A stretch of DNA of 64,000 bases. Origin: an uncultured Peptococcaceae bacterium (GTDB lineage Bacteria; Bacillota; Peptococcia; Peptococcales; Peptococcaceae). The stretch covers positions 11,478 through 75,477 of the forward strand of contig CABQBF010000001.1 in the NCBI GenBank assembly GCA_902462325.1, read 5' to 3'. Below are positions 1,916 to 36,941 of the stretch, piece after piece (the stretch's first letter is position 1; the number at the start of each line of letters is the position of its first letter). Both the position numbers and the translations under genes were made by a program. The notes under the pieces are model-generated. The model ran no database searches. It saw only the letters and a list, made by a program, of their open reading frames with translations, and was not told the DNA's origin.

Positions 1916-2074
1916 ATGACGTAAATCGACAAATAATTAACTCATGTTATTTAAAAATAATTATAGATTCGATAAAATGAAAACACAAAAGATATATAGC
2001 GATATTTGAATAAAAGCTATAGATCAATAGACACTGATTTTTTACTTTATATTTTCTTAGGAGGATGATTGATT

Positions 2075-8178: not shown

Positions 8179-8796
8179 ATGGATTTTGGATATATCAGAA
8201 TTTTAGAGCAAGAGGAAAAGGATCGAGCGCTCAGAGATAAAGTGCTGGAGATGCTGGAGGATGAGCGCACGCTTTTTGTGGATATCCGCAATAAAGATTA
8301 TACGAGACCGGCGTATGAGCGAATGTGCGATATGATACAGCCTGGAGATGTCATCTATGTTGATGAACTGGACAGCCTGGGCCGTACTTATGAAGACATG
8401 GCTGCGGAATGGTATCGGTTGACCCATGATTGGACCATTGATGTAGTGGTACTCAGCGACAGGGTGCAGTTGGACAGCCGTGTGTTCCGGCAACTAGGCG
8501 AAGAAGGAAAGCGACTGGAGCGGCAGATGCTGGATTTACTGGTGTATATGGCTGAGCTGCAGCATCGCAGAACGCGGGATAACCAGCGGGAAGGTATTGA
8601 AAGGGCACGACGGGAGGGCCGTCGCTTTGGGCGGCCTTCTATGGTGAAAGACCCGGTGTTGATGGAAAAAACCGCGCAGCGTTGGGCGGATGGCGAGCTT
8701 TCTATCGATGAGGTGTGTACAATTATCGGCGGCGGGCGCAGCACAGTGTATCAGTATATGAAGAATCATGGCTATACCAGAAAAAAGGAAGAATAG
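8179..8796 (+). CDS. serine-recombinase (resolvase/invertase) homologue with substituted catalytic residues and a retained C-terminal HTH
   Basis: It has the resolvase layout, namely GYIR..(Q)[17 protein letters not shown], a long helix E and a C-terminal [11 protein letters not shown]. The canonical R-V-S-T is R-I-L-E here. Confidence 0.6.
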
Positions 8797-8900
8797 CGGA
8801 GAAGGCTGCTGTAGCGGAAAATTTGCAGCGGCTTTTTTGTTTCTGTTTCATAAAAAAGCTATTTTGTGGAATACTATACATGCGTGGAAGGAGAATGAAG

Positions 8901-15130: not shown

Positions 15131-15300
15131 ATTCAAGTATTTTTAATTTAGAAGAAAAAGCAGAATTGTAGCGAAAAGTGGGCTCTGAAAGGTAGTTGCA
15201 ATTCTGCTTTCTTCATGAGTAGATATGTTAAAAATTTGTTAACAAGATAAACAAAACATAAAATGACGAAGAAAATAACATATTGTAAGAGGTGATTGTT

Positions 15301-17255: not shown

Positions 17256-17479
17256 TATGTTTATCCTTGGAAAAATATTCGGTCAAAAAATGATGAATGC
17301 GAAAAGGAAAATTTTCTACGCACCAAACATTATGGTTGCAAATAATAATTTATAAATAATGAAATGTATGCTATGATAAAAAGAAAACTGGTATAATTTT
17401 GAAAACCTGATCCTTAAAACGAAGCAAACATCATAGCACCTATGCCGGTAAAAAATAATGCAGATAGGTGCGTGAACTT

Positions 17480-18358
17480 ATGAAGGCCAATAGAAATTTG
17501 AAAGATAGTGTATCTTCCGCTTATTTTAGTGAAAATAATGCGCGATTGGTGGAATTATTCAATGCGTTGGAAGGAACGGATTATACGCCAGTGGAGCTCA
17601 ATACACTCACCGATGTGCTATGGATGGATAGAATAAATGATTTATCCTTTGTATTAAATGGTCAATTATTGGTGCTGTTGGAGCATCAATCTACCATAAA
17701 TCATAATATGGCGTTGCGGTCCTTGCTATATTGCGCGCGGCTTTATGAAAAGCTGTTGCCTAGAGATGCGGTGTATCGTACTGCACAGGCGAAAGTCCCC
17801 AATCCACGTTTTATTGTGCTGTATAATGGACAAGCGTCCTGTCCGAAGCACTATACCGAATATTTGACCGATGCTTTTTTAGTGCAGGAAGAAAATCCCG
17901 TGGTAAATGTTCGGGTGGAGGTGTATAATGTAAACTATACAGATAATGCAGTAGTCCAATCGGCACTCATAGAGCGCAGTCAGAGTTTAAAGGAATATAG
18001 TCAGTTTATTTATCAGCTGCAGCAAGGAAAGCGAAAAGGGCAACCTCTTGAGGAAGCGCTTTGCAATGCAATGGATTATTGTATAGAAAACGATATTATG
18101 CGTGGATTTTTAGAAACCCACGGAAGCGAGGTGCGCAATATGCTGTACACAGAGTGGAACATGGAAGAAGCTTGCCGTATTGCCTGCGAAGAAGGATGCA
18201 TGGAAGGACGTATAGAAGGAGAAAAGCGTGAACGGCTGAAAAATATTCGCCTGTTGAAAGATGTGTTATCTCCAGAAGTGATTGCAGAAAAGTTTGGACT
18301 GTCATTGTCGGAGGTGCTGGATATTTTGGAGATAGAGCCAGTACCCAAACAATCATAA
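17480..18358 (+). CDS. Rpn/YhgA-like PD-(D/E)XK nuclease family protein (recombination-promoting nuclease / putative transposase)
   Basis: The N-terminal half (DLSFVLNGQLLVLLEHQST) fits the D...E-x-Q nuclease core of the Rpn/PDDEXK_2 family as I remember it. Confidence 0.55.
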   Translation: MKANRNLKDSVSSAYFSENNARLVELFNALEGTDYTPVELNTLTDVLWMDRINDLSFVLNGQLLVLLEHQSTINHNMALRSLLYCARLYEKLLPRDAVYRTAQAKVPNPRFIVLYNGQASCPKHYTEYLTDAFLVQEENPVVNVRVEVYNVNYTDNAVVQSALIERSQSLKEYSQFIYQLQQGKRKGQPLEEALCNAMDYCIENDIMRGFLETHGSEVRNMLYTEWNMEEACRIACEEGCMEGRIEGEKRERLKNIRLLKDVLSPEVIAEKFGLSLSEVLDILEIEPVPKQS

Positions 18359-23704: not shown

Positions 23705-24424
23705 TCACCGTATAATCAGGATAAAGCCGTAAATCAGCATGATGGCGTACACGATATTTTTCAGCCGCTGGGGATTCATGTGGTTCAGCAGTTTGTTGCC
23801 CAGATAAATGCCCGGCGGGATGGCTAGCAGGCCAATGGCCGAGTAGTGGACGGCGGCCGGTGTAACCAGGCCGTTCATGTAACGGATGGCCAACAGGAAG
23901 ATTTCGGTAACGGCAAACCAAGCCTGCACGCTGGCGGTATAGCGGCGCACGTCGTTGCTGACGGTGAGCAGATACAGCACGATTGGAGGCCCACCGACAC
24001 AGAACAGGCTCTCCAGGGTGCCGCTTAAAGCGCCGGCAATAAAGCCGTTGCGTTTGGTGGGCTGGATGCGGATTTTTTTCTGAAAGAAGATAAAATACAG
24101 GCTCAGCAAAATCAGCACAACGCCCAGCACTTTTTTGATAGAGCCGTCCTCCACTGTACTCAGCAGCCGCACAGCGAAGCAACTGGCGATAAAATAGCTG
24201 ATGAAGGTTGGCACAATCCACTTCCACACGATTTCCTTATGCATACGGATGGCATTGATGGCGGTAAAGGCCAGTGTGAGCACCGTCACGCATACTGTGG
24301 CGCAGGAATAGGTAGGCATCAGCAATGGAAACACCATAATGGTGATGATGCCAAAGCCAAAGCTGGTGGAGGTGTGAATGGCGGTGGCGATAAAGGTGAC
24401 CAGTAAAAGAATGGCAATGGACAT
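23705..24424 (-). CDS. TauE/SafE (TSUP, DUF81) family anion/sulfite exporter
   Basis: 239 aa and 7-8 TM, with the duplicated TSUP pattern (GFGFGIITI...; GALSGTLESLFCVGGPPIVLY). Confidence 0.75.
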   Translation of the reverse strand: MSIAILLLVTFIATAIHTSTSFGFGIITIMVFPLLMPTYSCATVCVTVLTLAFTAINAIRMHKEIVWKWIVPTFISYFIASCFAVRLLSTVEDGSIKKVLGVVLILLSLYFIFFQKKIRIQPTKRNGFIAGALSGTLESLFCVGGPPIVLYLLTVSNDVRRYTASVQAWFAVTEIFLLAIRYMNGLVTPAAVHYSAIGLLAIPPGIYLGNKLLNHMNPQRLKNIVYAIMLIYGFILIIR

Positions 24425-24622
24425 GACAAGCAGACTCCCTTGGGAAAAAATTGATTGATGGATGCACTCTTGTATCTAAAAGAAAGAAGTGCTATACTAA
24501 AATACATACGACGATTTTAATTTATACTAATATTCTATGAATTCGCTGAAAGAACGGCGCCTGCTGTTTTGGCCGGTGCATTTACCTGTATTGCTCAGCT
24601 TTCAGAAAAGGAGGAACACGTT

Positions 24623-25525
24623 ATGCGCATCGATCAGCTAGCCGCATTGGTGGAGGTTGCCAAATCCGGCTCGATTAATTCTGCGTCTAAAAAACTGCAT
24701 GTTACACAGCAAAGCCTAAACAAATCACTGAAAAGTCTGGAAAATGAAATGAATTGTCATTTGCTGGACCGCACCAAGAAAGGAATTCGTCTGACTGCTG
24801 ACGGTGAGAAGGTGCTCAGCGCCGCCCAGGATATTATCAGCCGCTTAAATAAGCTGGAACGGGAATTAAATTTAAAACAGCATGCCGATACTTCGCTGCA
24901 CGGCAATTTGAATGTCAACTTGTCGCCTATGTTGAATATCTCGGTTCTTCCTGTGGCGTTTAAGGATTTTATATCCCATTATCCAGAAGTGAATTTATTT
25001 ACGGCAGAACGCTATCGGGATCAGATTTTGGAACGATGCTTAACCCATCAGGAGTTGGGCTTGTTGTGCGTATCGCCGCTGATTACTGAATTTTTTGACA
25101 ATATTCCCGACGAGATTGAGCTAATTCCTATGAAGCAGTACCCGATTTATGTAGCTGTCTCGGCTGGACATCCGCTGGCGGACCATAAATCGCTTTCGGT
25201 TAGCACGGTGGCCCATTATCCCTTTGTGGTGTATGAGATTGGCGGCACCGGCGGCGTTCATGCTTTTCAAAAGCTGGGACATACCAAGGTGGCTTTATCC
25301 ACCAATAACTACAAGCTGTGCGAAGAAATTCTGCGCAATGACACAGCCATTATGTACAGTTTTCCACCCTATCTGGAGCGCAATGTGTTCCCGACGCTTG
25401 TGCATATCCCCATTAAGGATAAGCAGGCGACCTTTACTATTTATGCTGCGCTGAATAAAAAGATGGATAAAAATCAGTTGTCGTTGGCGCGGGCGTTTAT
25501 TCATGTATTTAACGAGTATCTATAA
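24623..25525 (+). CDS. LysR family transcriptional regulator (divergent from tauE-like, directly upstream of the BMC operon)
   Basis: MRIDQLAALVEVAKSGSINSASKKLHVTQQSLNKSLKSLE is a LysR HTH. AAGGAGG RBS upstream. The ORF-track start at 24569 is rejected. Confidence 0.85.
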   Translation: MRIDQLAALVEVAKSGSINSASKKLHVTQQSLNKSLKSLENEMNCHLLDRTKKGIRLTADGEKVLSAAQDIISRLNKLERELNLKQHADTSLHGNLNVNLSPMLNISVLPVAFKDFISHYPEVNLFTAERYRDQILERCLTHQELGLLCVSPLITEFFDNIPDEIELIPMKQYPIYVAVSAGHPLADHKSLSVSTVAHYPFVVYEIGGTGGVHAFQKLGHTKVALSTNNYKLCEEILRNDTAIMYSFPPYLERNVFPTLVHIPIKDKQATFTIYAALNKKMDKNQLSLARAFIHVFNEYL

Positions 25526-25789: not shown

Positions 25790-25846
25790 GGCAGTATACT
25801 TAAAATATAATAAATTTATAGTATTATATCATGCAAGCATACTGCC
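25790..25846. promoter_or_regulatory. long AT-rich imperfect palindrome in the LysR-BMC intergenic region
   Basis: The outer arms are GGCAGTAT (25790-25797) and ATACTGCC (25839-25846). The inner arms are ATATAATA (25805-25812) and TATTATAT (25822-25829). Confidence 0.35.
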
Positions 25847-25941
25847 GTAGGGCGTTCATAAAAGGATTTTCGACAATCTATTCTATCTTTTCACCGGATA
25901 TCGGCTATATCATTTTGATTGTGTCAAAATGGGGCGTTATC

Positions 25942-25950
25942 TGATAAAAT
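25942..25950 (+). promoter_or_regulatory. extended -10 element (TGATAAAAT) with a poor -35; candidate activator-dependent promoter of the BMC operon
   Basis: TG at 25942-25943 and TAAAAT at 25945-25950. It lies about 120 nt upstream of the first BMC gene. Confidence 0.3.
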
Positions 25951-26072
25951 GAAAGGGAACAATCTTAACGTCGTACAGGCAAGCGCTGCAATTTTTTTAT
26001 GTTTTTGCTGGTCAAAGCCAGCGCCAGGCTGGCGATTGTCTGTAAATTCTGAATTGCAGGTGAGTTGAAACT

Positions 26073-26417
26073 ATGGAAGAAAAGCAGCGTATTATTCAAG
26101 AGTATGTGCCTGGCAAGCAGGTGACTTTGGCGCACATCATTCCCAGTCCGGTGCCTTCGCTTTATATGAAGCTGGGCTTGGTAGATGCGGAGGGGGCAAT
26201 CGGCATCTTTACCATTACGCCGACGGAAGCGGCGATGATTGCCGCCGATGTGGCTTCTAAGGCTGCTGATGTTGATTTGGGTTTGGTAGACCGGTTTAAC
26301 GGCAGTTTGGTGATTACCGGTGACGTGGCTGCTGTGGAGGCTGCCATGCAGGAAGTGTTGCACGTACTTTGCGGGCAGATGGGCTTTACCGCCGCTGCAG
26401 AGCTGACCAGAAGCTGA
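26073..26417 (+). CDS. BMC shell protein, circularly permuted BMC-H (EutS/PduU type)
   Basis: It carries the EutS/PduU signature N-terminus ([18 protein letters not shown]) and a permuted BMC domain. Confidence 0.85.
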
Positions 26418-26427
26418 GGTGGCAGGC

Positions 26428-26904
26428 ATGGCAAAAAAAGAAGGCCCCAAACGGGCTATCCTCATAGGTCGCTCAACGGCTGGTAAGACAACCATGTGCC
26501 AGTATATTTCCCAGGAGGAACTGCAGTATCACAAAACGCAGACGGTGCAGGTCATTGACGAAAGGTTAATCGACACGCCCGGTGAGTATTTGGAGAGCAG
26601 ACGGTTTCGCGGCTCACTGACAACGACGGCTGCCGACGCCGATATTATCGTGCTGGTGCAAGACGCTACCGAAAACGGCACCATGTTTTGGCCGGCCTAT
26701 TCTTCTATGTTCGCTAAGCCGGCGATCGGTGTGGTGACCAAAAGCGATATTGCCACGGAAAAGCAGATTGACACAGCGAAAAAGTATTTGACCATGGCCG
26801 GTGCTCAAAAATTATTTGTGACCAGCAGCGTGGCAGGCACAGGCTTTGATGAATTTCTGGAATATCTGGACTATCCTCGGCGGGAGCAAAGCACAGAAGC
26901 GTAA
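26428..26904 (+). CDS. EutP/PduV family microcompartment-associated GTPase
   Basis: Walker A (GRSTAGKTT), IDTPGEY and VVTKSD fit the EutP/PduV pattern. Confidence 0.8.
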   Translation: MAKKEGPKRAILIGRSTAGKTTMCQYISQEELQYHKTQTVQVIDERLIDTPGEYLESRRFRGSLTTTAADADIIVLVQDATENGTMFWPAYSSMFAKPAIGVVTKSDIATEKQIDTAKKYLTMAGAQKLFVTSSVAGTGFDEFLEYLDYPRREQSTEA

Positions 26905-27095
26905 ATTGGTTTATGGCTGCCCATTCCGGCTGATCGGTCTGTCCCGGCAGACAGTCGGGCGGTATGTGGCGGATATAAGATATCAGATAAAAAGATGCAG
27001 GAGGTGGTCGCCCCAATCGTACAATGGACTGCATGGTGAAATTGGACATGATAGAAACAAAATAAGAAATTTTGAATGTCCGATGGAGGTGAAAT

Positions 27096-27704
27096 ATGAA
27101 AGCATTAGGTTTAATTGAGCTCTTAGGATATTGTCCTGCAGTGGTAGCGCTGGATACTGCGTTGAAAACAGCCGATGTATCGTTCCAGCAAATCAGTAAA
27201 ATTGATAAAGGCATTGTTTCTTTAACAGTGACTGGCGATGTAGCGGCGGTACAAGCAGCTATGGACGCGGCAAAAGCGGCAGCGGAACAGGTTGGGCAGG
27301 TATTATATGTACATGTCATTCCCCGTCCCCATGAGGAAGTGGATGCCATGTTGAATCCGCCACCGGCAGCACCGCAGGCGCCAACGCCACAGCCGCCGTC
27401 TGCTCCTGATGCGCCTTCCGGCGATGGGGCAGAAGCAGTGGAAGAAGTGGAGGCTGCAGCGCAGGACAGCGCGGAGGAGGATGAGGAAGAGCCCTCGGCT
27501 CAGGAAGCGGCAGAGCCATCAAGTGATGTAAAGGCTTTGCTGGAAACTCTGACTCCGGAAGTGTTGGAGGGTATGACCGTGAAGGAATTACGCACGGTTG
27601 CCCGTGAATTGAATATCACCAACATGACGCGGAAGGAAATCAGATTTGGCAAAAAAGAAGACTTAGTGTCCTCTATTTGTAAATATTTAGAACAGGAGTG
27701 TTGA
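27096..27704 (+). CDS. BMC-H shell protein with a long Pro/Ala/Glu-rich linker and a C-terminal Rho_N/SAP-like helix-extended-helix domain
   Basis: Residues 1-90 form a canonical BMC domain (ALGLIELLGY...VIPRPHEEV). A low-complexity acidic linker of about 65 aa follows, then MTVKELRTVARELNITNMTRKEIRFGKKEDLVSSICKYL. Confidence 0.8.
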   Translation: MKALGLIELLGYCPAVVALDTALKTADVSFQQISKIDKGIVSLTVTGDVAAVQAAMDAAKAAAEQVGQVLYVHVIPRPHEEVDAMLNPPPAAPQAPTPQPPSAPDAPSGDGAEAVEEVEAAAQDSAEEDEEEPSAQEAAEPSSDVKALLETLTPEVLEGMTVKELRTVARELNITNMTRKEIRFGKKEDLVSSICKYLEQEC

Positions 27705-27707
27705 TTT

Positions 27708-29255
27708 ATGCAACTTTTTGACAAAGACCTTTTGTCTGTACAGGAAGTGCGCGACTTAGTAAGTGCAGCAAAAGAAGCACAGGCAGAACTGGCTGAAAAA
27801 TCCCAGGAAGACGTGGATCGCATTGTGAAATCCATCGCTGACGCCGGTGTGCGCAACGCAGCTCGTCTGGCTGTAATGGCTAACGAAGATACCGGTTTTG
27901 GTATCGTAGCTGATAAAGTAGTGAAAAACGTATTTGGTAGCTACAATGTTTACAACGCTATCAAAGATATGAAAACCATTGGTGTAATTGACAGAAACGA
28001 TGAAAAGGGTCTGATTACCATTGCAGTACCTCTGGGCGTTGTAGCTGGGATTGTTCCATCTACCAACCCAACTTCTACCGTTTTCTTCAAATCAGAAATT
28101 GCTATCAAATCCGGGAACTCGATTGTATTCTCTCCACATCCATCTGCACTGCGCTGCATCCAGGAAGCTGTTAAAGTAATCCGTCAAGCGATTGCAGAAG
28201 TTGGCGGCAACGAAAATCTGGTTTCCTGCATCAGCATTCCAACCAGACAGGCTACCGAAACTCTGATGAGACATCCAGACACCGCTATGATTTTAGCAAC
28301 TGGCGGTTCTGCAATGGTTCATGCAGCTTATTCCTCCGGGAACCCTGCAATCGGCGTAGGTCCTGGTAATGGTCCAGCCTTCATTGATAAGAGCGCAGAC
28401 CTGGCTCTGGCTGTAAAACGGATTATGGACTCCAAAACTTTCGACAACGGTACCATTTGCGCTTCCGAACAGTCCATCATCTGCGAAGAAGATTACAAAC
28501 CGGCTGTTCAGGCTGAAATGGAAAAACAGGGCGCTTACTTCCTGAGCGATGAAGAAAGTGCCAAACTGGGCAAATTCATTCTGCGTGCTAACGGCACCAT
28601 GAACCCACAGATTGTTGGGAAGAGTGTACAGACCATCGCTGGCTTGGCTGGCTTAGAAGTTCCTGCCGGCGCTCGCGTACTGGTTGCAAAAGAAGATGGC
28701 GTTGGCCGTGGTCATCCATACTCCAACGAAAAACTGGCTCCAATCTTAGGCTTCTACACAGGCAAAGACTACAAAGATGTTTGCGATAAAGTCTGCATGA
28801 TTTTGAGCTATGAAGGGAAAGGTCATACCTTCTCCATGCATACCAACAACCAGGAAATGGTTGAATATTTTGCAAAACGGGTACCAGTATCCCGTATCTG
28901 CGTAAACACCCCAAGTACACTGGGCGGTATCGGCGCAAGCACTGCATTGATGCCATCCTTGACACTGGGCTGCGGCGCAATCGGCGGTTCTGCTACTTCT
29001 GAAAACGTAGGTCCAATGCAGTTATTAAATCTGCGCTATGTTGCCATCGGCGCTCTGGAAATTGAAGACATTCGCGCTACTCTGCCAGATTGCTCCAGCG
29101 GCGTATGCGTTATGAGAAACAACAATGCTGCTGCTCCTGCAGCCGCTCCAACACTGGGCGCTGCTGCTCCAGCTTCCACTGCCAGCGCATCTTTGAATGA
29201 TAGCCAGATGGATGAACTGGTTCGCAAAATTATTGAACGTTTACAGAATGCGTAA
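27708..29255 (+). CDS. CoA-acylating aldehyde dehydrogenase (EutE/PduP family) with a C-terminal encapsulation-peptide-like helix
   Basis: [21 protein letters not shown] and [10 protein letters not shown] are the ALDH acylating motifs. The C-terminus is an Ala/Pro linker followed by [17 protein letters not shown]. Confidence 0.9.
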
Positions 29256-29331
29256 GCATAAATGAAAAATGTTTAAAATCTTAAAACAATAAAAATCATA
29301 AGATTGTATTTTTTAAGGAGGAATTTGTGTT

Positions 29332-29613
29332 ATGGCTGCAACGCAAGCTTTAGGTATGATTGAAACAAAAGGTGTAGTAGCTGCTATTGAAGCTGCTGAC
29401 GCTATGGTAAAAGCCGCTAATGTTACTCTGATTGGGAAAGAACACATCGGCGCTGGTCTGGTAGATGTAATGGTGCGCGGCGATGTAGGCGCTGTAAAAG
29501 CTGCTGTAGACGCAGGTGCTGCCGCTGCTGAACGTGTTGGGGAATTGATGTTTGTGCATGTAATCCCAAGACCACATGACGAAGTAGAAGAAATTCTGCC
29601 AACTCTGGGCTAA
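29332..29613 (+). CDS. BMC-H shell protein (PduA/EutM-like)
   Basis: 93 aa. ALGMIETKG...[17 protein letters not shown]...HVIPRPH. Confidence 0.9.
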
Positions 29614-29670
29614 GTATCGTTATCTCATATAATTGCTGAAAGAACAGCGTAGAAAAAGGAGTGTATAGCA

Positions 29671-29952
29671 ATGGCTACAATGCAAGCATTAGGCATGGTT
29701 GAAACAAAAGGTCTGGTACCTTCTATCGAAGCTGCGGATGCTATGGTAAAAGCCGCTAATGTTACCCTGATTGGGAAAGTACAGGTAGGCGGCGGCTTAA
29801 TCTGCGTTATGGTACGCGGTGATGTAGGCGCAGTAAAATCTTCTGTAGACGCAGGCGCTGCTGCTGCAGAAAGAATTGGCGGTCTGTTGGCTGTTCATGT
29901 AATTCCAAGACCACATGAAGAAGTAGAAGCAATTCTGCCTAAATTAAAATAA
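29671..29952 (+). CDS. BMC-H shell protein (PduA/EutM-like), copy 1 of an identical pair
   Basis: 93-aa canonical BMC-H. The protein is identical to the product of 30030-30311. Confidence 0.9.
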
Positions 29953-30029
29953 GTTTGACAGAATTTTTCCCGGTACCGGCGCTTTCTAGTGTGCGCCGGA
30001 AGCCGGAAGTTGAAGGAGTGTATAGATAA

Positions 30030-30311
30030 ATGGCTACAATGCAAGCTTTAGGCATGGTTGAAACAAAAGGTTTGGTACCTTCTATCGAAGCTGCAGATGC
30101 TATGGTAAAGGCTGCAAACGTTACCCTGATTGGTAAAGTACAGGTAGGCGGCGGCTTGATTTGTGTAATGGTACGCGGTGATGTAGGCGCAGTAAAATCT
30201 TCCGTAGATGCTGGTGCTGCTGCCGCTGAACGGATTGGCGGTCTGCTGGCTGTTCATGTAATCCCAAGACCACACGAAGAAGTAGAAGCAATTCTGCCTA
30301 AATTAAAATAG
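30030..30311 (+). CDS. BMC-H shell protein (PduA/EutM-like), copy 2 of an identical pair
   Basis: The protein is 100% identical to copy 1, but the DNA differs at about 22 codons, all synonymously. Confidence 0.9.
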
Positions 30312-30352
30312 GATTACAGTTTTAATTCTGACCCAATAAGGGGGTGTAGCGT

Positions 30353-31141
30353 TTGAAGGTACTTACAGAAGCAAAGGTGAGAGCGGAGGTGCCGCGCAGT
30401 GCGCAGCCCGAGGTTTACTATGTGGAGCCGGGGTATATCCTCTCGCCGGCAGCTCGTGAATATCTGATGGGACGTCAAATCAAAATTTCTAACGGACCAA
30501 AGCCCGGTGAAGAGCCGGAAGCCGTCATCGCTGCAGATGAGGTTCCCCCTATGCCTGCTGCAGCGCCTCAGACGAAGGCTGACTGTGCCAAATATGTGGA
30601 TTACACCACAGGCGCCTGCTATTTTGAAAAACCGGTGCATATGACTGTTTTATACGGCGATGTGCTGGTGGCCAAGGATCATCCGCAGATTTTATTCCGC
30701 GGTAAGGTGGAGAGCCTGCAAGCGCAGATTATTCTCTATCAGGCCATGATTGCAGAGCAAAACGGCAGCCAGAAGCTGATTGATGATTTAAATAATATTT
30801 TAACGATTTTACGAAATATCCTGCGGAGTCATGTATTAAATCAGCCGCTGGAAGTGGAAAGCATTATCGGGCTGAGCCCTGTGGAATTAGAAGAACGGGT
30901 CAAAGAGCCAATGCGGTACTTCCGGCTTGAGCAGGCCGGTATCCCCGATTATACCCGGGGAATCCAATATGCCCGGCTGAATCAACTGTATACACAGACG
31001 CGGGAAGTAGAAGTGGCAGCCATTACAGCGCTCCACGAAGGAAACCAATATACCAGAAGCGATATTCTGGAAACCTTAAACTGGTTGTCCAGCGCGTTTC
31101 GGGTAATGATGTTTATGCAGTTGGCAGGTGAATATAAATGA
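30353..31141 (+). CDS. EutT/PduO-family (Cob_adeno_trans-like) cobalamin adenosyltransferase homologue
   Basis: The N-terminus (LTEAKVRAEV....ILSPAAREYLMGRQIKI) and VAKDHPQILFRGKVESLQAQII resemble EutT as I remember it. TTG start after GGGGGTG. Confidence 0.5.
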   Translation: MKVLTEAKVRAEVPRSAQPEVYYVEPGYILSPAAREYLMGRQIKISNGPKPGEEPEAVIAADEVPPMPAAAPQTKADCAKYVDYTTGACYFEKPVHMTVLYGDVLVAKDHPQILFRGKVESLQAQIILYQAMIAEQNGSQKLIDDLNNILTILRNILRSHVLNQPLEVESIIGLSPVELEERVKEPMRYFRLEQAGIPDYTRGIQYARLNQLYTQTREVEVAAITALHEGNQYTRSDILETLNWLSSAFRVMMFMQLAGEYK

Positions 31142-31764
31142 GCGAAACAAGCATGATTGATCAGGTCGTCAATGCGGTTGTAGATACAATCAACAGAGAA
31201 TATGTGCAGGTTGAAGTTTCTGCACGGCACGTACATTTGAGTCAGGCTGATTTGGAAGTATTATTTGGGCCAGGCGCAACATTAACACCAAAACGTGAAT
31301 TGTCGCAGCCGGGTCAGTTTCTTTCTGAACAGCGCGTAACACTGGTGGGGCCAAAGGGCAGAAAAGAAAATGTTTCTGTTTTAGGGCCTGTGCGGAAAGC
31401 CACCCAGGTTGAATTATCCAAGAGTGATGCCAGAGGTTTAGGGGTGAAGGCTCCATTGCGGGAATCGGGCGATGTAGCTGGCTCCGGTTCTATCACATTG
31501 GAAGGGCCGAAAGGCAGCGTAACAATTCCGGAAGGCGTCATTGTGGCTCACTGCCACATTCATATGACAACTGCCGATGCCCGCAGAATGGGCTTGACCG
31601 ATAATCAGCACGTCAGTGTAGAAATCGGCGGCGAACGTCCGCTGGTGTTCAAAGATGTGATTGTTCGTGTCAGCGATAAATTCCGCTGCCGAATGCACAT
31701 TGACACCGATGAAGGCAATGCAACCAGCTTAGGAAAACTGACCTTAGGCAGAATTATTAAATAA
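31138..31764 (+). CDS. pduL: phosphate propanoyl/acetyl-transferase PduL
   Basis: It has the two PduL repeats (VEVSARHVHLSQADLEVLFG; IVAHCHIHMTTADARRMG). The N-terminal helix IDQVVNAVVDTI looks like an encapsulation peptide. Confidence 0.9.
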   Translation: MSETSMIDQVVNAVVDTINREYVQVEVSARHVHLSQADLEVLFGPGATLTPKRELSQPGQFLSEQRVTLVGPKGRKENVSVLGPVRKATQVELSKSDARGLGVKAPLRESGDVAGSGSITLEGPKGSVTIPEGVIVAHCHIHMTTADARRMGLTDNQHVSVEIGGERPLVFKDVIVRVSDKFRCRMHIDTDEGNATSLGKLTLGRIIK

Positions 31765-31789
31765 AATTCCAGCGAAGGAGTTTTTCAGC

Positions 31790-32623
31790 ATGATGGATTT
31801 ACAACGGGTAAATGCCTATATGGAACGGGTGGAGCAGTCGGAGAAGCAAACCTTCAAGCCGGTCGGCGAGAAGCTGAAGGTCGGTTTGGATTTGGGGACG
31901 GCTTACATTGTTCTGGTTGTATTGGATGAAGAAGATAACCCCATCGCTTGCGAAAAGCAGGCGGCCAGTGTTTTGAAAGATGGCGTTGTGGTAGATTATG
32001 TGGGTGCTCTGCAAATTGTGAGAGCCTTGAAAGAAAAGCTGGAAGAACGGCTAGGCACCCAATTACAGTATTGTGCCATTGCCATGCCGGCTGGCACAGA
32101 AGACAGCATCAAAACCCATCAATATATTGCAGAAGGCGCAGGCTTTGAAGTAACCAATATTTTGGATGAGCCATCGGCAGCCAATGCTATCTATCAGATT
32201 GAAGACGGTGTTGTGGTTGATATCGGCGGCGGTACGACGGGGCTGGCGATTTTAAAAAACGGCATAGTCACCCAGATTGAAGATGAGCCTACCGGCGGTA
32301 CCCATGTATCGCTGGTGCTGGCGGGAAATTATAAAATTCCCTTCGACGAGGCAGAACAGATTAAGCAGGACTATAAGCGCCACAAAGAAATCTTTCCTGT
32401 GGTGAAACCTGTACTGGAAAAAATGGCTACCATCGTCAATCGCTACGTGAAAAAAGGTGATGTGGATACCATCTATCTTTGCGGTGGTACCTGCTGCTTG
32501 ACCGGCATTGAGACCGTTTTTGAAAAAATAACCGGCATTCATACCGTAAAACCGGCCAATCCGTTTTTGGTAACACCGGCTGGCATTGCGATGAATTGCA
32601 AGCTGGATGGGACAGTTGTATAA
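31790..32623 (+). CDS. eutJ: EutJ-like actin/Hsp70-fold chaperone
   Basis: VGLDLGTAYIVLVV, VVDIGGGTTGLAI and IYLCGGTC are ASKHA phosphate motifs in an EutJ-sized protein. Confidence 0.85.
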   Translation: MMDLQRVNAYMERVEQSEKQTFKPVGEKLKVGLDLGTAYIVLVVLDEEDNPIACEKQAASVLKDGVVVDYVGALQIVRALKEKLEERLGTQLQYCAIAMPAGTEDSIKTHQYIAEGAGFEVTNILDEPSAANAIYQIEDGVVVDIGGGTTGLAILKNGIVTQIEDEPTGGTHVSLVLAGNYKIPFDEAEQIKQDYKRHKEIFPVVKPVLEKMATIVNRYVKKGDVDTIYLCGGTCCLTGIETVFEKITGIHTVKPANPFLVTPAGIAMNCKLDGTVV

Positions 32624-33452
32624 AAGGTTGTTTAATAAGAAAGAAGGGGATTCCTTGGACTTCGATGCGTTGGTAGACGAACTTGCAAATCGTGTGCGTG
32701 CAGCGCTGGCCGTGCAGGAAGCTGCAGAACAGCTGGTTTCGGCTTGCAGCACCACCGGCTTCTGCACTGCAGATGCACCAGAGTCGCAGAAACCAATCTT
32801 GATTGGTCTGACTCAGGATAGTCCACTGCCACCTTGCCGCTTTACTCTGCTGGAAAGTGCCAGAGTAAAAGAGAAATACCGCATTCAATGTGCGCAGAAA
32901 TGCAACTATGATGTGGATATTGCCAGCTGCGAAGCCGTGGTACTCCATGATTTGACCAATGAATCGCTGGCCAAAATTGCCAGCGGCATCTGTGACACCC
33001 CTTACACCAAGCTAGTGTCGCAGGCATTGTTAATGGGAAAGACAGTTTATCTGCTGCAGGATCAGATTGAATTATACAACTACCGGCAGACTGCCGCTAA
33101 GGTGTATTATAAGATGTTCCGCGGCCAGCTCGGTATGCTGGAACAGTCCGGTCTGGTGATTTGCTGCCCGGATAAAATTGAAGAGATTCTTGTGCAGGCC
33201 GCTGGCGGTGGTGCAGCTACTTGCCAAACCACCTGCGTAAAGGATGCAGATAAAAAAGAAGCAGAACAGGCGACAGAACCTAAGGCTGCTGACAAAACCG
33301 TGAAGCTGGAAAATCATTTAATCAGCGAACGGAGCGTTGCCGAAGCTTGCCAGTCTGGAGCAAGCCGGATTGTTGTCGGTGCAAAAGCCATTGTAACTGA
33401 TTTAGCCAAGGAATATGCGCAGAACCGGAATGTAGAGCTGGTTCGGGAATAA
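32607..33452 (+). CDS. BMC-associated protein of unknown function (flavoprotein-fold-like core, EutQ/EutT-N-terminal-like C-terminal module)
   Basis: It has an N-terminal amphipathic helix (LDFDALVDELANRVRAAL) and a core with LTNESLAKIASGICDTPYTKLVSQALLMGKTVYLL (PF02441-like by memory). The C-terminus is ISERSVAEACQSGASRIVVGAKAIVTDLAKEYAQNRNVELV. The start is uncertain (ATG 32607 or TTG 32655). Confidence 0.4.
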   Translation: MGQLYKRLFNKKEGDSLDFDALVDELANRVRAALAVQEAAEQLVSACSTTGFCTADAPESQKPILIGLTQDSPLPPCRFTLLESARVKEKYRIQCAQKCNYDVDIASCEAVVLHDLTNESLAKIASGICDTPYTKLVSQALLMGKTVYLLQDQIELYNYRQTAAKVYYKMFRGQLGMLEQSGLVICCPDKIEEILVQAAGGGAATCQTTCVKDADKKEAEQATEPKAADKTVKLENHLISERSVAEACQSGASRIVVGAKAIVTDLAKEYAQNRNVELVRE

Positions 33453-33477
33453 TGGCGTCATAAGAGGAGGAGTTTCA

Positions 33478-33762
33478 GTGCAGATTGCAAAAGTAATCGG
33501 CAATATCTGGGCAACCAGAAAGGAATCAACACTGACCGGTATGAAGCTGCTGATTGTACAGCCTATCAACATTTTAGATGGCGATAAGCCGTGCAGCGAG
33601 CCCATTGTGGCAGCCGATATGATTGGCGCCGGCATGGGCGAGACGGTTATTATTGTAACCGGCAGCACCGCCCGGGTGGCTACAGGCTCGGCAGAAGCGT
33701 CGGTAGACGCCACTGTCATCGGCATTGTAGACGACAAAGAGTTTGATGCCAATTTAATTTAA
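33478..33762 (+). CDS. BMC-P pentameric vertex protein (EutN/PduN/CcmL family)
   Basis: MQIAKVIGNIWATRK...LLIVQP...VAADMIGAG.GE.VIIVTGS is the EutN/CcmL pattern. GTG start after GAGGAGG. Confidence 0.9.
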   Translation: MQIAKVIGNIWATRKESTLTGMKLLIVQPINILDGDKPCSEPIVAADMIGAGMGETVIIVTGSTARVATGSAEASVDATVIGIVDDKEFDANLI

Positions 33763-33806
33763 ATAGTAGGAAAGTCCCATAGATTTTCTTTAGAAAAGTG
33801 TGGTGT

Positions 33807-35162
33807 ATGACCTTGAGTTTTATTGATACAGTAAAAGATGCAGGTATCGTAGGGGCCGGCGGCGCCGGTTTTCCAACGCACGTGAAGCTGAATGCGAAAG
33901 CCGAATACTTTATCGTAAACGCAGCGGAATGTGAACCACTGATTGAAACAGATAAATATCTGTGCCGTACCTTTGCTGATCAGATCGTAGAAGCAGTGCT
34001 GGCTACCGCCGCTCATATCGGCGCAAGCCGCAAAGTCATCGCACTCAAAGGCAAATACAAAGAAGAAATCGCTTCTTTGCAGGCTGCTATTGACCGTGCG
34101 CATGCCGACATCGAAATTTTTCAGATGCCAACCTTCTACCCTGCCGGCGATGAACAGACCATGGTACAGATGGTTACTGGCAGAAGCGTACCAGAACGCG
34201 GTCTTCCGCTAGACGTAGGCGCTGTGGTAGACAACGTTGGTACCATGCTCAATCTGTATGAAGCGCTGCATGGCGCACCTGTTACAGAAAAATATCTGTC
34301 TGTAGTAGGGGAAGTAAAAGAACCGATTATGCTGAAAGTGCCAATTGGTACTCCAGTAACCGAATGTATCGCGGCTGCACAGCCGACCATCAGCGACTAT
34401 GCCATCATTTTAGGCGGCCCGATGATGGGTAAAATCCCTGCCGATGACCAAGCCATCCAGGCAGCAGTTGTTACAAAAACCACCGGTAATATTATCGTAT
34501 TGCCAAAAGACCATTATCTGTTCCAGCGGGCCAGTCTGCCGCTGGCAACCATTAAACGGCAGGCTCGCGCAGCCTGCATCCAGTGTAAAATGTGTACCGA
34601 TTTGTGCCCTCGCTACATGATTGGGCATCAAATCCGTCCAAACCTGGTAATGCGCAATATCTGGAGAGAAGACCAGATTACCGATAACGATGAGTACCTG
34701 GCAAATTTTGGCGATGCCATGAACTGCTGCGACTGCGGCATTTGTGAAATGTTCGCTTGCCCGATGGGGCTGTCGCCACGGAAAGTCAACAGCTATGTGA
34801 AAGGTCAGTTGCGTGCCAAAGGCATTCAGGTTCCTCGCAATATGGAACCAGTTGCTCGGGACGCTATTGACAACCGTCGCGTTCCAACTCACCGGCTCAT
34901 TGCCCGTCTGGACTTGGCTGAGTTTGACGGTCTGCACGCCCATACCTGCATAGAATTGAAACCGGAAACGGTATATATTCCATTTAGTCAGCATATTGGC
35001 AAACCGGCTGTTGCCGCTAAAAAAGTGGGCGACCGCGTTGTAAAAGGCGAAGTGCTGGCTGCTGCGGCAGAAGGATTATCCACCAATATTCACGCCAGCA
35101 TGGACGGCGTAATTGTTGCCATTGATGAAAAAGGCGCTCGTATAAGCGGAAAGGAGGTATAA
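33807..35162 (+). CDS. PduS-like (RnfC/NuoF-type) Fe-S flavoprotein
   Basis: GAGGAGFPTHVK, NAAECEPL, and two ferredoxin-type clusters (CIQCKMCTDLCP; CCDCGICEMFACP). Confidence 0.85.
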   Translation: MTLSFIDTVKDAGIVGAGGAGFPTHVKLNAKAEYFIVNAAECEPLIETDKYLCRTFADQIVEAVLATAAHIGASRKVIALKGKYKEEIASLQAAIDRAHADIEIFQMPTFYPAGDEQTMVQMVTGRSVPERGLPLDVGAVVDNVGTMLNLYEALHGAPVTEKYLSVVGEVKEPIMLKVPIGTPVTECIAAAQPTISDYAIILGGPMMGKIPADDQAIQAAVVTKTTGNIIVLPKDHYLFQRASLPLATIKRQARAACIQCKMCTDLCPRYMIGHQIRPNLVMRNIWREDQITDNDEYLANFGDAMNCCDCGICEMFACPMGLSPRKVNSYVKGQLRAKGIQVPRNMEPVARDAIDNRRVPTHRLIARLDLAEFDGLHAHTCIELKPETVYIPFSQHIGKPAVAAKKVGDRVVKGEVLAAAAEGLSTNIHASMDGVIVAIDEKGARISGKEV

Positions 35163-35166
35163 TGCT

Positions 35167-35706
35167 ATGGGAAATGCATTAGGCATGATTGAATTGTCCA
35201 GTATTGCCCGAGGCATCGAAACCTGCGATTACATGGTGAAAGCTGCTCAGGTAGATCTGGTACGCGCTTCCACAGTTTGTCCAGGTAAATACATCATCAT
35301 TATCGGCGGTGATACTGCTGATGTAAGAGCCTCCATGACAGAAGGATCTAAAATTGGGGGGCCCTATGTAGTGGATACATTGTTAATCCCCAATATTAAC
35401 GAACAGGTAATTCCAGCCATCTCCATGACCAATCAGGTGACCGACCGTGACGCCATTGGGATTTTGGAATTCTACTCCATCGCCTCTGCTATCACGGCTG
35501 CCGATGTGGCTGCCAAAGCTGCCGATGTTACCTTAATTGAAGTGAGAATTGGGTATGCCATCGGCGGAAAAGGCTTTGTAACCTTAACCGGCGATGTAGG
35601 AGCGGTTCGCGCTGCAGTTGCTGCGGCTAAAGAAAACGCTGAATTACTGGTGAATACAAGTATCGTACCAAGACCAGCAAATCAGTTGTTTGACGCATTG
35701 TTATAA
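35167..35706 (+). CDS. BMC-T tandem-domain shell protein, PduT-like (candidate pore 4Fe-4S site)
   Basis: Two BMC domains in 179 aa. The TVCPGKY motif lies at the position of the PduT cluster-ligand Cys. Confidence 0.85.
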   Translation: MGNALGMIELSSIARGIETCDYMVKAAQVDLVRASTVCPGKYIIIIGGDTADVRASMTEGSKIGGPYVVDTLLIPNINEQVIPAISMTNQVTDRDAIGILEFYSIASAITAADVAAKAADVTLIEVRIGYAIGGKGFVTLTGDVGAVRAAVAAAKENAELLVNTSIVPRPANQLFDALL

Positions 35707-35750
35707 TCCAAGAAGATACAGTTAAAATCTTGTCTAAGGAGAGAGATAGA

Positions 35751-36707
35751 ATGGATTTATTGAAACTTCAGGAAGAACTGAGAGAAAAAGCTCTGCAGAG
35801 ATCCAGAGCAGAAAAAGCTGCTAACAAAGCCAAAGCACCGGCTGCTGGCGCTGTAAAGGGCCCAATCATCGACTTCCGTTATCGTCCAAACACCAAAAGC
35901 ATTATCGGCGGCATTGCAGAAAGCCCAATTTTCCGTGCCGGTCTGATTGCCAACGGTGTAGATATTGATGAATTCTACAGCAGAGCAAGAACCATGCCAG
36001 AAATCATCGCCGACCTGAAAGAACACAACGTAATTAAAGCTGTTATCGTTGGTCGTGACGCGGAAACCACCTATGGTTACAAACCAAACAATCCAGAAAT
36101 TCGTCAGTTCGTGCAGGCTTGCCCAGAAATCTTCCTGGGTTACTACGGTGTAGACCCACATAAAGGCATGCAGGCTATCCGTGATTTAGACGCTGCTGTA
36201 AAAAGCGGCGACTTCCACGGCGCTGCCATGGACCCAATGTATGCCCAGTTGAAATCCAGTGATGCCAAAATGTATCCAGTTTATGCAAAATGCTGCGAAC
36301 TGAACATTCCAATCGTTATCACTGCTGGTCCAGCTCGTTATACCGCTAATACCGTTATGGATTACACCCATCCAAGCGAAATTGATATCGTAGCAAAAGA
36401 CTTCCCAGATTTGAAAATCATCATCAGCCATGGTGCATGGCCATTTGTAGATGAAATGATTGGCGTTACCTTCCGTAACAGAAATGTATTCCTGGAAATC
36501 TCCGAATACGAAGAATATCCAGGCGCAAGCGACTTCCTGGATGCAGCAAAAACCATTCTGAAAGACCAGATGTTGTTCGCCAGCGCTTGCCCATTCGTGC
36601 CATATCTGGAAGCTGCAGAAAAATACACCACTTACGGCTTTGACGCAGAAACCTACGAAAAAGTTATGTGGAAAAACGCTGCAAGAGTATTGGGTATGGA
36701 AGTATAA
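35751..36707 (+). CDS. divergent amidohydrolase-2 (PF04909/COG2159-like TIM-barrel) protein with an N-terminal encapsulation-peptide-like extension
   Basis: The family-like blocks are IIDFRYRP, VIKAVIVG, GVDPHKG, NIPIVITAG, FPDLKIIISHGAWP, MLFASACPF and WKNAARVLG. The N-terminus is MDLLKLQEELREKALQRS followed by an Ala/Lys/Pro linker. The ATG lies 9 nt after AAGGAG; the ORF-track TTG at 35730 is rejected. Confidence 0.65.
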   Translation: MDLLKLQEELREKALQRSRAEKAANKAKAPAAGAVKGPIIDFRYRPNTKSIIGGIAESPIFRAGLIANGVDIDEFYSRARTMPEIIADLKEHNVIKAVIVGRDAETTYGYKPNNPEIRQFVQACPEIFLGYYGVDPHKGMQAIRDLDAAVKSGDFHGAAMDPMYAQLKSSDAKMYPVYAKCCELNIPIVITAGPARYTANTVMDYTHPSEIDIVAKDFPDLKIIISHGAWPFVDEMIGVTFRNRNVFLEISEYEEYPGASDFLDAAKTILKDQMLFASACPFVPYLEAAEKYTTYGFDAETYEKVMWKNAARVLGMEV

Positions 36708-36751
36708 TACGATCTGCAACCAAGAAACAATTAAATTTTACATTGCGAGCA

Positions 36752-36779
36752 AAAGGACTCCTGCGGGAGTCCTTTTTTG
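36752..36779 (+). terminator. strong rho-independent terminator ending the BMC operon
   Basis: AAAGGACTCC-TGCG-GGAGTCCTTT followed by TTTT. Confidence 0.8.
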
Positions 36780-36941
36780 TTTTGTGTTCCCGTAAAATAT
36801 CCCAATAAAATTTATAGATGTTTCAAAGAAATATTTATAAATTTGACGAAAAAGATAGCGAAAATCATGCACGGAAATTCCATTTTTATGGTATGCTTAT
36901 ATTGTATCATAGATATTTTTGGTATAAAATGGGGTGAAAAC

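Follow-up and report, generated by a model that had tools for sequence, protein, structure and literature searches.

Introduction

In Bilophila wadsworthia, taurine induces bacterial microcompartments (BMCs) with the isethionate sulfite-lyase IslAB and acetaldehyde dehydrogenase activity (Burrichter 2021, PMC8667426). The corresponding locus type, GRMguf, had before that work been a glycyl radical enzyme (GRE) microcompartment of unassigned function (PMC8667426), and a 2026 review equates GRMguf with IslA (PMC13450708). As tabulated, the Bilophila cluster comprises a regulator, IslB, IslA, an aldehyde dehydrogenase (AldDH), two shell genes, a phosphotransacetylase, a 'cobalamin adenosyltransferase (unclear)', EutQ, a BMC-H shell protein, a PduT-like protein, PduS and a 'hypothetical, predicted amidohydrolase' (PMC8667426). 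Among catalogued BMC types, hidden Markov models (HMMs) of the family PF04909 (Amidohydro_2) exist for two only, GRMguf and MIC3, and an encapsulation peptide (EP) model, 'HMM04909amidhy_1_grmguf', has the consensus …MDaqeIQsIIEnVIaq… (Sutter 2021). Here we compare these systems with a 15-gene BMC operon at 26073-36707 (+) in a 64,000-nucleotide stretch of DNA from an uncultured Peptococcaceae bacterium (GenBank assembly GCA_902462325.1, contig CABQBF010000001.1), the whole of which is referred to as the window.

An earlier note on this DNA found no signature enzyme in the operon, held that its substrate was not deducible and suggested that it may belong to, or extend, an orphan class of catalogued, amidohydrolase-bearing BMC loci. 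Such loci are indeed in the catalogue, as PF04909-containing types (Sutter 2021). The conclusions on the substrate and on orphan status do not stand: the parts list matches the catalogued GRMguf type, of which the Bilophila cargo is isethionate sulfite-lyase, and a GRE with its activase is encoded at a satellite locus of the same genomes. Our analysis indicates that the operon is probably the shell and downstream core of a GRMguf-type (isethionate or C2-sulfonate) GRE microcompartment, with the signature enzyme pair at a separate locus of the same genome. We favor this reading because the operon genes are orthologous (68-83% identity) to those of a related, GRE-led operon; because the parts list matches the Bilophila IslAB cluster; because an IslA/IseG-like GRE and activase are present in the same genomes (contig CAXVQW010094660.1 and two accession pairs from metagenome-assembled genomes, or MAGs); because the GRE-less architecture is maintained rather than decayed; because the PF04909 family sits in sulfonate-type loci in 10 of 10 contexts outside the clade; and because the LysR regulator (49-51%) and transporter (~50%) in the window are related to neighbors of GRE clusters. 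The organelle type itself, the isethionate microcompartment, is already known. New here are three variations on GRMguf: a relocated signature enzyme, added accessories like those of ethanolamine-utilization (EUT) loci, and a targeting peptide that has swapped from one terminus of a cargo protein to the other, giving an N-terminal extension.

Gene content of the operon points to the GRMguf type

The operon consists of fifteen same-strand open reading frames (ORFs), all of them intact in the ORF listing and in Pfam and NCBIfam scans, with intergenic gaps of 0-190 nt; the co-directional organization and every gene call reported in the earlier note hold. The shell set is complete, with five BMC-H-type genes, EutN and PduT. 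Three canonical 93-aa BMC-H proteins are encoded at 29332-29613, 29671-29952 and 30030-30311 (all +; PF00936, ~96 bits), the BMC-P vertex protein EutN at 33478-33762 (+; PF03319, 103 bits), and a PduT-type tandem BMC-T at 35167-35706 (+), in which two BMC domains are matched (152.8 bits) and the pore cysteine, Cys38, is found in the translated motif TVC38PGK. The metabolic core contains a CoA-acylating acetaldehyde dehydrogenase with a C-terminal EP (27708-29255, +), which scores 697.7 bits against the TIGR02518 cutoff of 620.1, a PduL phosphotransacylase (31138-31764, +; PF06130, 258.7 bits) with an N-terminal amphipathic segment (MIDQVVNAVVDTINRE), and a PduS-like flavin/Fe-S oxidoreductase (33798-35162, +) with Complex1_51K, SLBB, Fer4_17 and RnfC_N domains. 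The last gene (35751-36707, +, with an alternative start at 35730) encodes a TIM-barrel protein of the PF04909 family (93 bits; no NCBIfam match), in agreement with its earlier description as a divergent Amidohydro_2-like protein with a targeting-peptide-like N-terminus, here a helix and linker. The remaining genes, which resemble EUT components, are described below.

Of the features that characterize GRMguf, the window thus has a complete shell, an AldDH and PduL core with PduS and PduT, and a PF04909 protein with an EP-like extension, which is N-terminal here and C-terminal in HMM04909amidhy_1_grmguf. It lacks an IslA-type GRE and activase, which are absent from the operon and from the rest of the 64 kb. 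The earlier statement that no signature enzyme is present in the locus is therefore correct, and it extends to the whole window: Pfam scans of 30 large ORFs outside the operon (among ~37 non-nested ORFs of at least 150 aa) detected no GRE, activase, EutBC, PduCDE/diol dehydratase, aldolase or alcohol dehydrogenase, and tblastn searches of the window with GRE and activase sequences returned nothing under E = 1, and no remnant.

Like the Bilophila cluster, the operon combines AldDH, a phosphotransacetylase, an EutT-like protein, BMC-H and BMC-P proteins, a PduT-like Fe-S shell protein, PduS and a terminal 'amidohydrolase'; neither cluster includes an alcohol dehydrogenase, and the cargo GRE is of the IslA type. 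The two differ in that the window operon is without GRE and activase (~195 kb away, together with an iron-dependent alcohol dehydrogenase, Fe-ADH), is accompanied by a LysR regulator rather than a PAS-domain one, belongs to a Firmicute (Peptococcaceae), adds EutS, EutP, an EutK-like BMC-H, EutJ and a TIGR02536-like protein, and lacks EutQ. The GRE residue at position 192 is Ile in Bilophila and Asn in the window-type enzyme. GRMguf loci of Desulfosporosinus, Desulfitobacterium, Moorella and Desulfobulbia (Sutter 2021; L012, L022 and L054 in our locus numbering) share with the window an EP-bearing PF04909 protein, AldDH, BMC-H, PduL, EutN, PduS, PduT and genes of a tripartite ATP-independent periplasmic (TRAP) transporter. 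In those loci the PF04909 gene comes first and its EP is C-terminal (…EKLIIETVIKELAKKG…), whereas in the window it comes last and the extension is N-terminal.

When the locus was classified against published types, as the earlier note had proposed, its content matched GRMguf, and MUF1, MUF2, MUF3, BUF and MIC3 did not fit. MUF1, a Clostridium-only type with a PduB-like BMC-Tsp shell protein and a PDU1D-like AldDH (Sutter 2021), was rejected on the absence of any PduB/EutL-type protein, on an AldDH of the EutE/TIGR02518 type and on the Peptococcaceae host. MIC3, defined by AldDH without a phosphotransacylase, a satellite BMC-P triplet with aldolase, and no EPs (Sutter 2021), was rejected on the presence of PduL, a single EutN and EP-like extensions. 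MUF2, MUF3 and BUF were rejected on gene content.

The closest outgroup of the window clade is an uncharacterised operon from a related gut Peptococcaceae bacterium (L021; Logan SRR22184585). This operon reads LysR (divergent)-GRE-activase-AldDH-three BMC-H-PduL fusion-EutN-PduS-PduT-Amidohydro_2-TauE, and thus carries GRE and activase at its 5' end. Orthologous AldDH (78.6% identity), BMC-H (78-83%), PduL (68%), EutN (70%), PduS (74.5%), PduT (78%) and N-terminally extended amidohydrolase (75%) are found in both operons, with the same order of genes toward the 3' end, and both AldDH proteins end in the same C-terminal amphipathic helix. The window PduL corresponds to the N-terminal half of a 457-aa PduL fusion protein in L021, and the rest of that fusion, its C-terminal, eut_hyp-like domain, matches the separate TIGR02536-like protein of the window at 35% identity (E 1e-44). 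In contrast to L021, which begins with GRE and activase and ends with TauE, the window operon contains none of these three; L021 for its part is without EutS, EutP, the EutK-like shell protein, the EutT-like protein and EutJ.

A candidate signature enzyme at a satellite locus

With the L021 GRE as query, we recovered an 84%-identical protein cluster (P0125, 'Peptococcaceae bacterium', 269 members). This GRE is not in a BMC locus; it adjoins an activase and the housekeeping genes glmU, prs, pth and mfd. The two loci are physically linked on contig CAXVQW010094660.1 (244,096 bp), where a GRE (P0245), an activase and a 382-aa Fe-ADH lie within the fetched 41.9-50.4 kb and the 3' end of the operon, PduS-PduT-amidohydrolase, lies within the fetched 240.3-244.1 kb. 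The amidohydrolase on this contig (P0256) is 96.9% identical to the window protein. In this near-identical strain the GRE-activase pair is located ~195 kb from the operon, well outside a 64-kb window. Additionally, GRE and BMC-type amidohydrolase entries occur as GenBank accession neighbors, 30 apart in one case (MBE6112374 and MBE6112404) and 161 apart in another (MBQ2034598 and MBQ2034759), numbers close enough for each pair to come from one MAG submission.

The satellite GRE is IslA/IseG-like. Its best matches in the PDB are D. vulgaris IseG (5YMR, 1202 bits) and Bilophila IslA (7KQ3, 1168 bits), followed by HpsG (6LON, 1137 bits). At four discriminating motifs it has the IslA/IseG form, with FRSS, GGAFN, TSGG and RYVPF in place of the YRSA, GNEFQ, TSGC and RYVPI of HpsG; the longer motifs, FRSSxQW, GGAFNEGYAHW, TSGG and RYVPFTSH, are identical in the operon-embedded GRE of L021. 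All of the sulfonate-binding and catalytic residues of IslA/IseG listed in a 2026 review (Arg189, Gln193, Cys468, Glu470, Arg678 and Val680; PMC13450708) are conserved in P0125/P0245. The only relevant NCBIfam model is the HpsG-named NF048011 (1428 bits for the satellite GRE), which cannot separate IslA from HpsG.

The Fe-ADH that follows GRE and activase (L042/L041, 6641-7789, 382 aa) has no obvious EP. Among NCBIfam models it matches the AdhE alcohol dehydrogenase domain best (375 bits), then EutG (220 bits); an assignment as SarD was rejected at 200 bits against a cutoff of 700. This enzyme could be the compartment's NAD-recycling alcohol dehydrogenase or a sulfoacetaldehyde reductase.

Substrate and standing of the assignment

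Several observations weigh against the GRMguf assignment or its exact substrate. Every Peptococcaceae member is known from sequence alone, and compartments with encapsulated cleavage have been shown only for Bilophila; accordingly, a substrate has largely been assigned by experiment for the family (Bilophila IslAB), not for this organism. The GRE was seen in sister MAGs and in a strain whose last gene is 96.9% identical, rather than in the window's own genome. No recognisable EP was found on the GRE, whose N-terminus resembles that of non-BMC homologues. No regulatory motif shared by the upstream regions of the operon and the satellite GRE emerged from searches for inverted repeats and for 14-mers with up to two mismatches, none of which exceeded shuffled sequences, and co-expression of the two loci is for this reason unproven. 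EutS, EutP, the EutK-like protein and EutJ are EUT-like extras that are not in the Bilophila main cluster as tabulated, and EutJ and the EutK-like protein are also absent from L021. The TauE proteins of different loci are 20-25% identical and are not orthologues. Finally, Ile192 (IslA numbering), beside the sulfonate-binding Gln193, is replaced by Asn across the gut Peptococcaceae GREs (P0125, P0241, P0126 and L021). Given this replacement, the substrate may not be exactly isethionate.

This last point underlies the alternative that the same organelle and satellite GRE act on another hydroxy-sulfonate, for example a substituted C2 or C3 sulfonate, in which case the aldehyde in the core would differ. 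The change from FRSSIQW to FRSSNQW is a polar one in the pocket, further active-site differences occur in the PF04909-linked GREs of L019, L018 and L023, and all these GREs match NF048011, with no IslA-specific model available. However, the other four discriminating motifs are IslA/IseG-like and not HpsG-like, IseG and IslA are the best PDB matches, the AldDH passes the TIGR02518 acetaldehyde-dehydrogenase equivalog cutoff, and the HpsG product is a ketone, with no need for an AldDH/PduL core (PMC13450708). We regard a different sulfonate as unlikely, and isethionate as the most plausible substrate of the GRMguf-type compartment.

EUT-like genes and the ethanolamine alternative

Six genes in the operon give it an EUT-like appearance. 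The first two encode an EutS/PduU-type permuted BMC-H (26073-26417, +; PF00936; NF012012 EutS, 117.6 bits) and an EutP/PduV GTPase (26419-26904, +; PF10662, 165.6 bits) with the P-loop GRSTAGKTT. They are followed by a 202-aa BMC-H (27096-27704, +; PF00936, 82 bits) that is EutK-like in its acidic linker and Rho_N/SAP-like C-terminal domain (PF07498, 25.5 bits), its NCBIfam matches to EutM and EutK being under cutoff. Further downstream are an EutT-like homologue of adenosyltransferases with a PduO-type domain (30353-31141, +; PF01923, 42 bits; NF011595 EutT, 102 bits against a cutoff of 226), an EutJ of the actin/Hsp70 fold (31790-32623, +; NF011660, 368 bits against a cutoff of 182), and the TIGR02536-like 'eut_hyp' ('ethanolamine utilization') protein (32607-33452, +; 82.8 bits, under cutoff).

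Such genes are consistent with an EUT2-like ethanolamine microcompartment whose EutABC lyase is encoded elsewhere and to which PduS, PduT and the amidohydrolase have been added. EutS, EutP, an EutK/M-type shell protein, an EutE-type AldDH, EutT, PduL, EutJ, a TIGR02536-like protein and EutN are shared with Firmicute EUT2 loci, and most of these are typical of Firmicute eut operons; EutT together with PduS could serve B12 recycling. Nevertheless, this alternative is very unlikely. The signature EutBC (with EutA) was not found by domain scans of the 64-kb window, and EutL, EutH, EutQ, EutV and EutW are likewise missing from the window, to which this search was confined, while PduS, PduT and the PF04909 protein are additions relative to EUT2. 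AldDH, PduL, the shell proteins, PduS, PduT and the amidohydrolase are orthologous to those of the GRE-led L021 operon. The EutT-like gene can be accounted for without B12, since the Bilophila isethionate cluster holds a gene of the same kind, and B12-related genes have been described as relics in GRM loci (Axen 2014). Next to the operon, moreover, are a TauE gene and a LysR gene akin to the LysRs of sulfonate clusters.

The encapsulated PF04909 protein

For the last gene, ATG 35751 is the most likely start and the TTG at 35730 a less likely one: a Shine-Dalgarno sequence, AAGGAGA, lies 8 nt 5' of the ATG, and homologues begin MDLL…. The N-terminal amphipathic helix and linker occupy residues 8-45 in the numbering of the window ORF and are followed by the barrel; an AlphaFold2 (AF2) model (pLDDT 89.2) places a helix at 2-33 and a linker at 34-45. 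The Pfam match covers residues 124-322 only.

An alignment of 29 family members shows that the canonical HxH at the end of beta-strand 1 is replaced by an invariant D48-x-R50-x-R52-P53 (D48-F-R50-Y-R52-P in the window) and that the beta-8 Asp motif 'GSD' is replaced by A284-S285-A286. The HxH and beta-8 Asp ligands by which metal-dependent PF04909 amidohydrolases and decarboxylases are recognized are thus not found in this protein, which is unlikely to be a conventional metal amidohydrolase. Among 120 listed homologues, 111 contain the motif D-[FC]-R-[FY]-R-P; the other nine are N-terminally truncated or have another residue just before the Asp, and all that reach beta-strand 1 keep both arginines. 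Further invariant polar residues, R109/D110, D142/H144/K145, D168, H234, E259/E261 and S285, are located where predicted beta-strands of the AF2 model end, and the active-site geometry is judged from this placement.

The closest solved structure is BB4693 from Bordetella bronchiseptica (3IRS/3K4W; E 1.5e-30, 28% identity, TM 0.81). Like the window protein, BB4693 has IIDFRxRP (IIDFRLRP) in place of HxH and is uncharacterised; it differs in having neither a BMC context nor an N-terminal extension. Characterised PF04909 decarboxylases and hydratases are far behind, at 12-19% identity. The metal-dependent bile salt hydrolases of two 2026 preprints (PMC13081902, PMC13081988), at first sight a fit for an amidohydrolase beside taurine genes, were rejected, as those 101-kDa secreted PF07969 proteins represent a different family.

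Homologues of ~50% identity are common in Desulfosporosinus, Desulfitobacterium-like Firmicutes, Moorella, Desulfovibrio and Desulfobulbia. A motif search divided the 120 listed homologues into 59 with no extension, 43 with a C-terminal EP that corresponds to the HMM04909amidhy_1_grmguf consensus, nine with an N-terminal helix and linker (the window clade plus P0022) and nine unclassified. In all ten contexts outside the window clade, a count that excludes the distant (30-35% identical) proteobacterial homologues L013 and L016, the PF04909 gene lies within 10 kb of a sulfonate-type GRE or of a BMC/TRAP locus of that type. The GRE was seen within the fetched 10 kb in six of the ten (L018, L019/L020, L021, L023/L024, L037 and L055); in the Moorella BMC locus (L022) it begins at the edge of the fetched stretch, the fetched views of L012 (Desulfocapsaceae) and L054 (Desulfosediminicola) showed only BMC and TRAP genes, and the tenth context, the Bilophila cluster, is taken from the literature.

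Five of these contexts are shell-free GRE clusters, in Desulfosporosinus (L018), Desulfovibrio aminophilus (L019/L020) and gut Firmicutes (L023/L024, L037 and L055); the order in L019/L020 is Amidohydro_2-DctP-DctQM-GRE-activase-methyl-accepting chemotaxis protein-TauE. Across the ten contexts and the window locus, the extended proteins are all from BMC loci and those without an extension all from shell-free GRE clusters. The PF04909-linked GREs differ in their active sites, with SCLQW and TSGC in L019, RLVPF in L018 and no Gln193 in L023. That enzymes with differing active sites share a PF04909 partner suggests that the role of this partner relates to what those enzymes have in common, the sulfonate or sulfite, and not to any single substrate; our best guess is that the PF04909 protein handles a sulfonate or sulfite step.

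The L023/L024 cluster (7416-10846) consists of a CitMHS transporter, GRE and Amidohydro_2, with a divergent LysR and no adjacent activase, and belongs to a very abundant gut Firmicute found in 169 blocks of the metagenome collection. Its GRE, with SSINW (no Gln193) and RMVPVTGH instead of RYVPFTSH, probably has a different specificity.

These contexts also bear on the reading implied in the earlier note, that the operon encodes a genuine orphan metabolosome, whose aldehyde-generating signature enzyme would be the Amidohydro_2-like protein itself. The protein is the only non-core enzyme in the operon, is EP-tagged and is encoded by its most conserved gene (dN/dS, the ratio of nonsynonymous to synonymous substitution rates, 0.04-0.05). 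But EP-less homologues occur in GRE clusters without shell or AldDH (L018, L019, L023, L037 and L055), indicating a role independent of any supply of substrate to AldDH; wherever other lineages have the protein in a BMC locus, it accompanies a GRE-type locus; and it is without the canonical catalytic metal ligands. An aldehyde-generating role is, on these grounds, highly doubtful.

More speculatively, and in our judgment rather improbably, the PF04909 protein may be a new RxR-type, probably metal-independent TIM-barrel enzyme that every sulfonate-cleaving GRE system needs and that acts on sulfonate or sulfite. Such an enzyme would explain the linkage to GREs with different active sites, the EP tagging in BMC loci only and the strong colonisation defect of the presumed Bilophila counterpart. 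For instance, it might accelerate the decay of 1-hydroxyethanesulfonate, the acetaldehyde-bisulfite adduct, which would be expected to form when both products of the lyase are set free inside a closed shell. The Bilophila protein WCP94_002051 (HMPREF0179_00649), presumed to be the counterpart from its annotation and from Sutter's catalogue, shows log fold changes between -5.6 and -15.7 under five of the six gut conditions in transposon-directed insertion-site sequencing (TraDIS), like PduS and PduT (PMC12125255 Supplementary Data 1).

The GRE-less layout is conserved

Searches with the last gene recovered eleven species-level MAGs of gut 'Peptococcaceae bacterium' at 91-99% identity (human, mouse, cattle, goat and buffalo), and an exact match to the window protein occurs in ~100 blocks of the metagenome collection. 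The search for syntenic loci that the earlier note had proposed thus yielded both forms: the GRE-less operon, intact in at least seven species-level MAGs (L002, L004, L005, L006, L007, L008 and L011), and the related L021 operon with GRE and activase at its 5' end. The 5' module is variable among the former, with EutS and EutP present in L002, L004 and L007 and absent from L005, L006 and L011, where the operon begins at the EutK-like BMC-H. In comparisons with L002 and L011, dN/dS is 0.03-0.10 for AldDH (0.07-0.10), PduS, EutJ and the amidohydrolase, and reaches its highest value in the operon, 0.14-0.17, at the EutT-like gene. The GRE-less layout is maintained under strong purifying selection (dN/dS 0.03-0.17) and is not decayed.

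BMC-H copies 2 and 3 encode identical 93-aa proteins from a 296-nt repeat that is only 90% identical in DNA, all differences being synonymous. L006 carries one 93-aa BMC-H copy fewer than the window operon.

That the operon is a decaying remnant that has lost its GRE and no longer functions, as the absence of a GRE and activase that its relative L021 has at the 5' end might suggest, is extremely unlikely, given 15 of 15 intact ORFs, a GRE-less layout free of stop codons across the MAGs, and duplicate BMC-H genes that have diverged at 10% of DNA positions with zero amino-acid changes.

Proposed pathway and significance

By homology with Bilophila, the GRMguf-type compartment would work as follows. 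A hydroxy-sulfonate, most likely isethionate, would be imported, possibly via the TRAP system at 14-17 kb. A radical-SAM activase would activate the IslA-like GRE inside the shell, and the GRE would then cleave the C-S bond to yield acetaldehyde and sulfite; the EP-tagged AldDH would convert acetaldehyde to acetyl-CoA and NADH, and PduL would form acetyl-phosphate, recycling CoA. PduS and the Fe-S pore of PduT may carry electrons across the shell for NAD+ recycling, for the activase or for both, and the satellite Fe-ADH may provide an alternative NADH sink or form isethionate from sulfoacetaldehyde. Sulfite would leave the shell to be exported (TauE) or reduced. The PF04909 TIM barrel would be an encapsulated companion of sulfonate-cleaving GREs generally.

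If so, this group of uncultured gut Peptococcaceae, widespread in human, mouse and ruminant metagenomes, is a likely maker of sulfite or H2S from taurine-derived sulfonates in microcompartments, a role so far tied mainly to Bilophila and Desulfovibrio. The locus also illustrates that classification by locus content alone can mislabel a functional BMC of known type as an orphan if the signature enzyme has moved to a satellite locus. The uncharacterised part of the system is its PF04909 cargo, a highly conserved, encapsulated, non-canonical TIM-barrel partner of sulfonate GREs, whose presumed Bilophila counterpart appears important for gut colonisation.

Regulator, transport genes and operon borders

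A LysR-family regulator (24569-25525, +; HTH_1 and LysR_substrate domains) lies directly upstream of the operon, and 87-90% identical counterparts occupy this position in L005, L006 and L011. With the LysRs that are divergent from DctP-DctQM-GRE-activase-Amidohydro_2 clusters (L037 and L055), it shares 49-51% identity. Between LysR and EutS, a perfect inverted repeat, TATAAT-N11-ATTATA (25806-25828), has the T-N11-A-like arrangement typical of a LysR box; the repeat is AT-rich, may be due to chance and was not found upstream of the satellite GRE.

A TRAP transporter is encoded at 14072-17184 (+) by DctP (14072-15130) and a fused DctQM (15292-17184), identified by the Pfam domains DctP, DctQ and DctM. 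Compared with TRAP proteins beside sulfonate-type GRE/BMC genes (L012, L019, L037, L054 and L055), DctP is 42-49% and DctQM 51-58% identical, making this system a candidate sulfonate (isethionate) importer. On the opposite strand, a TauE/SafE-family anion (sulfite) exporter is encoded at 23705-24424 (-; PF01925, 86.8 bits). TauE genes also occur in the GRE/BMC loci L019, L020 and L021, and the neighboring TauE is a weak, family-level hint of a sulfonate locus; its use as an orthologous marker of such loci was rejected on the low identity given above.

At the 5' border, the candidate extended -10 promoter proposed earlier corresponds to a TG-extended site, GTGTCA-18-TG-TAAAAT, at 25921-25950 (+). 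It is unproven as a promoter because such sites are not enriched over shuffled sequences (23 found, 17.7 +/- 4.6 expected). A 190-nt non-coding gap (26905-27095) separates EutP from the EutK-like BMC-H gene; neither this gap nor the 5' region of the operon contains a riboswitch or ANTAR-like RNA detectable with Rfam (no match at the gathering score, and chance-level matches at E < 1). At the 3' end, the strong terminator noted before is real and convincing: an intrinsic terminator at 36751-36786 (+), with an 11-bp stem (36751-36776), a 4-nt loop and a T-rich tail. Beyond it, close strains vary (L045-L053): the window has HTH_3 and major facilitator superfamily (MFS)-CBS genes, other strains have GGDEF/EAL genes, and the 244 kb contig has a DDE transposase; the 3' border of the operon is a recombination hotspot.

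Elsewhere, the window carries ordinary chromosomal genes such as ispE, prmA, rsmE and those of the S10/spc ribosomal cluster. Two ORFs at 8170-10898, where GC is higher (~50%), overlap: one has a resolvase domain and covers the start of the other, which encodes a DUF255/thioredoxin-domain protein. A YhgA-like transposase homologue lies at 17468-18358, between the TRAP genes and a MarR/MFS pair, and both features may reflect earlier rearrangement close to the operon. At 2069-5289, an arylsulfotransferase (ASST) homologue followed by a transporter of the CitMHS/Na-sulfate-symporter type makes up the window's second pair of genes related to sulfur compounds.

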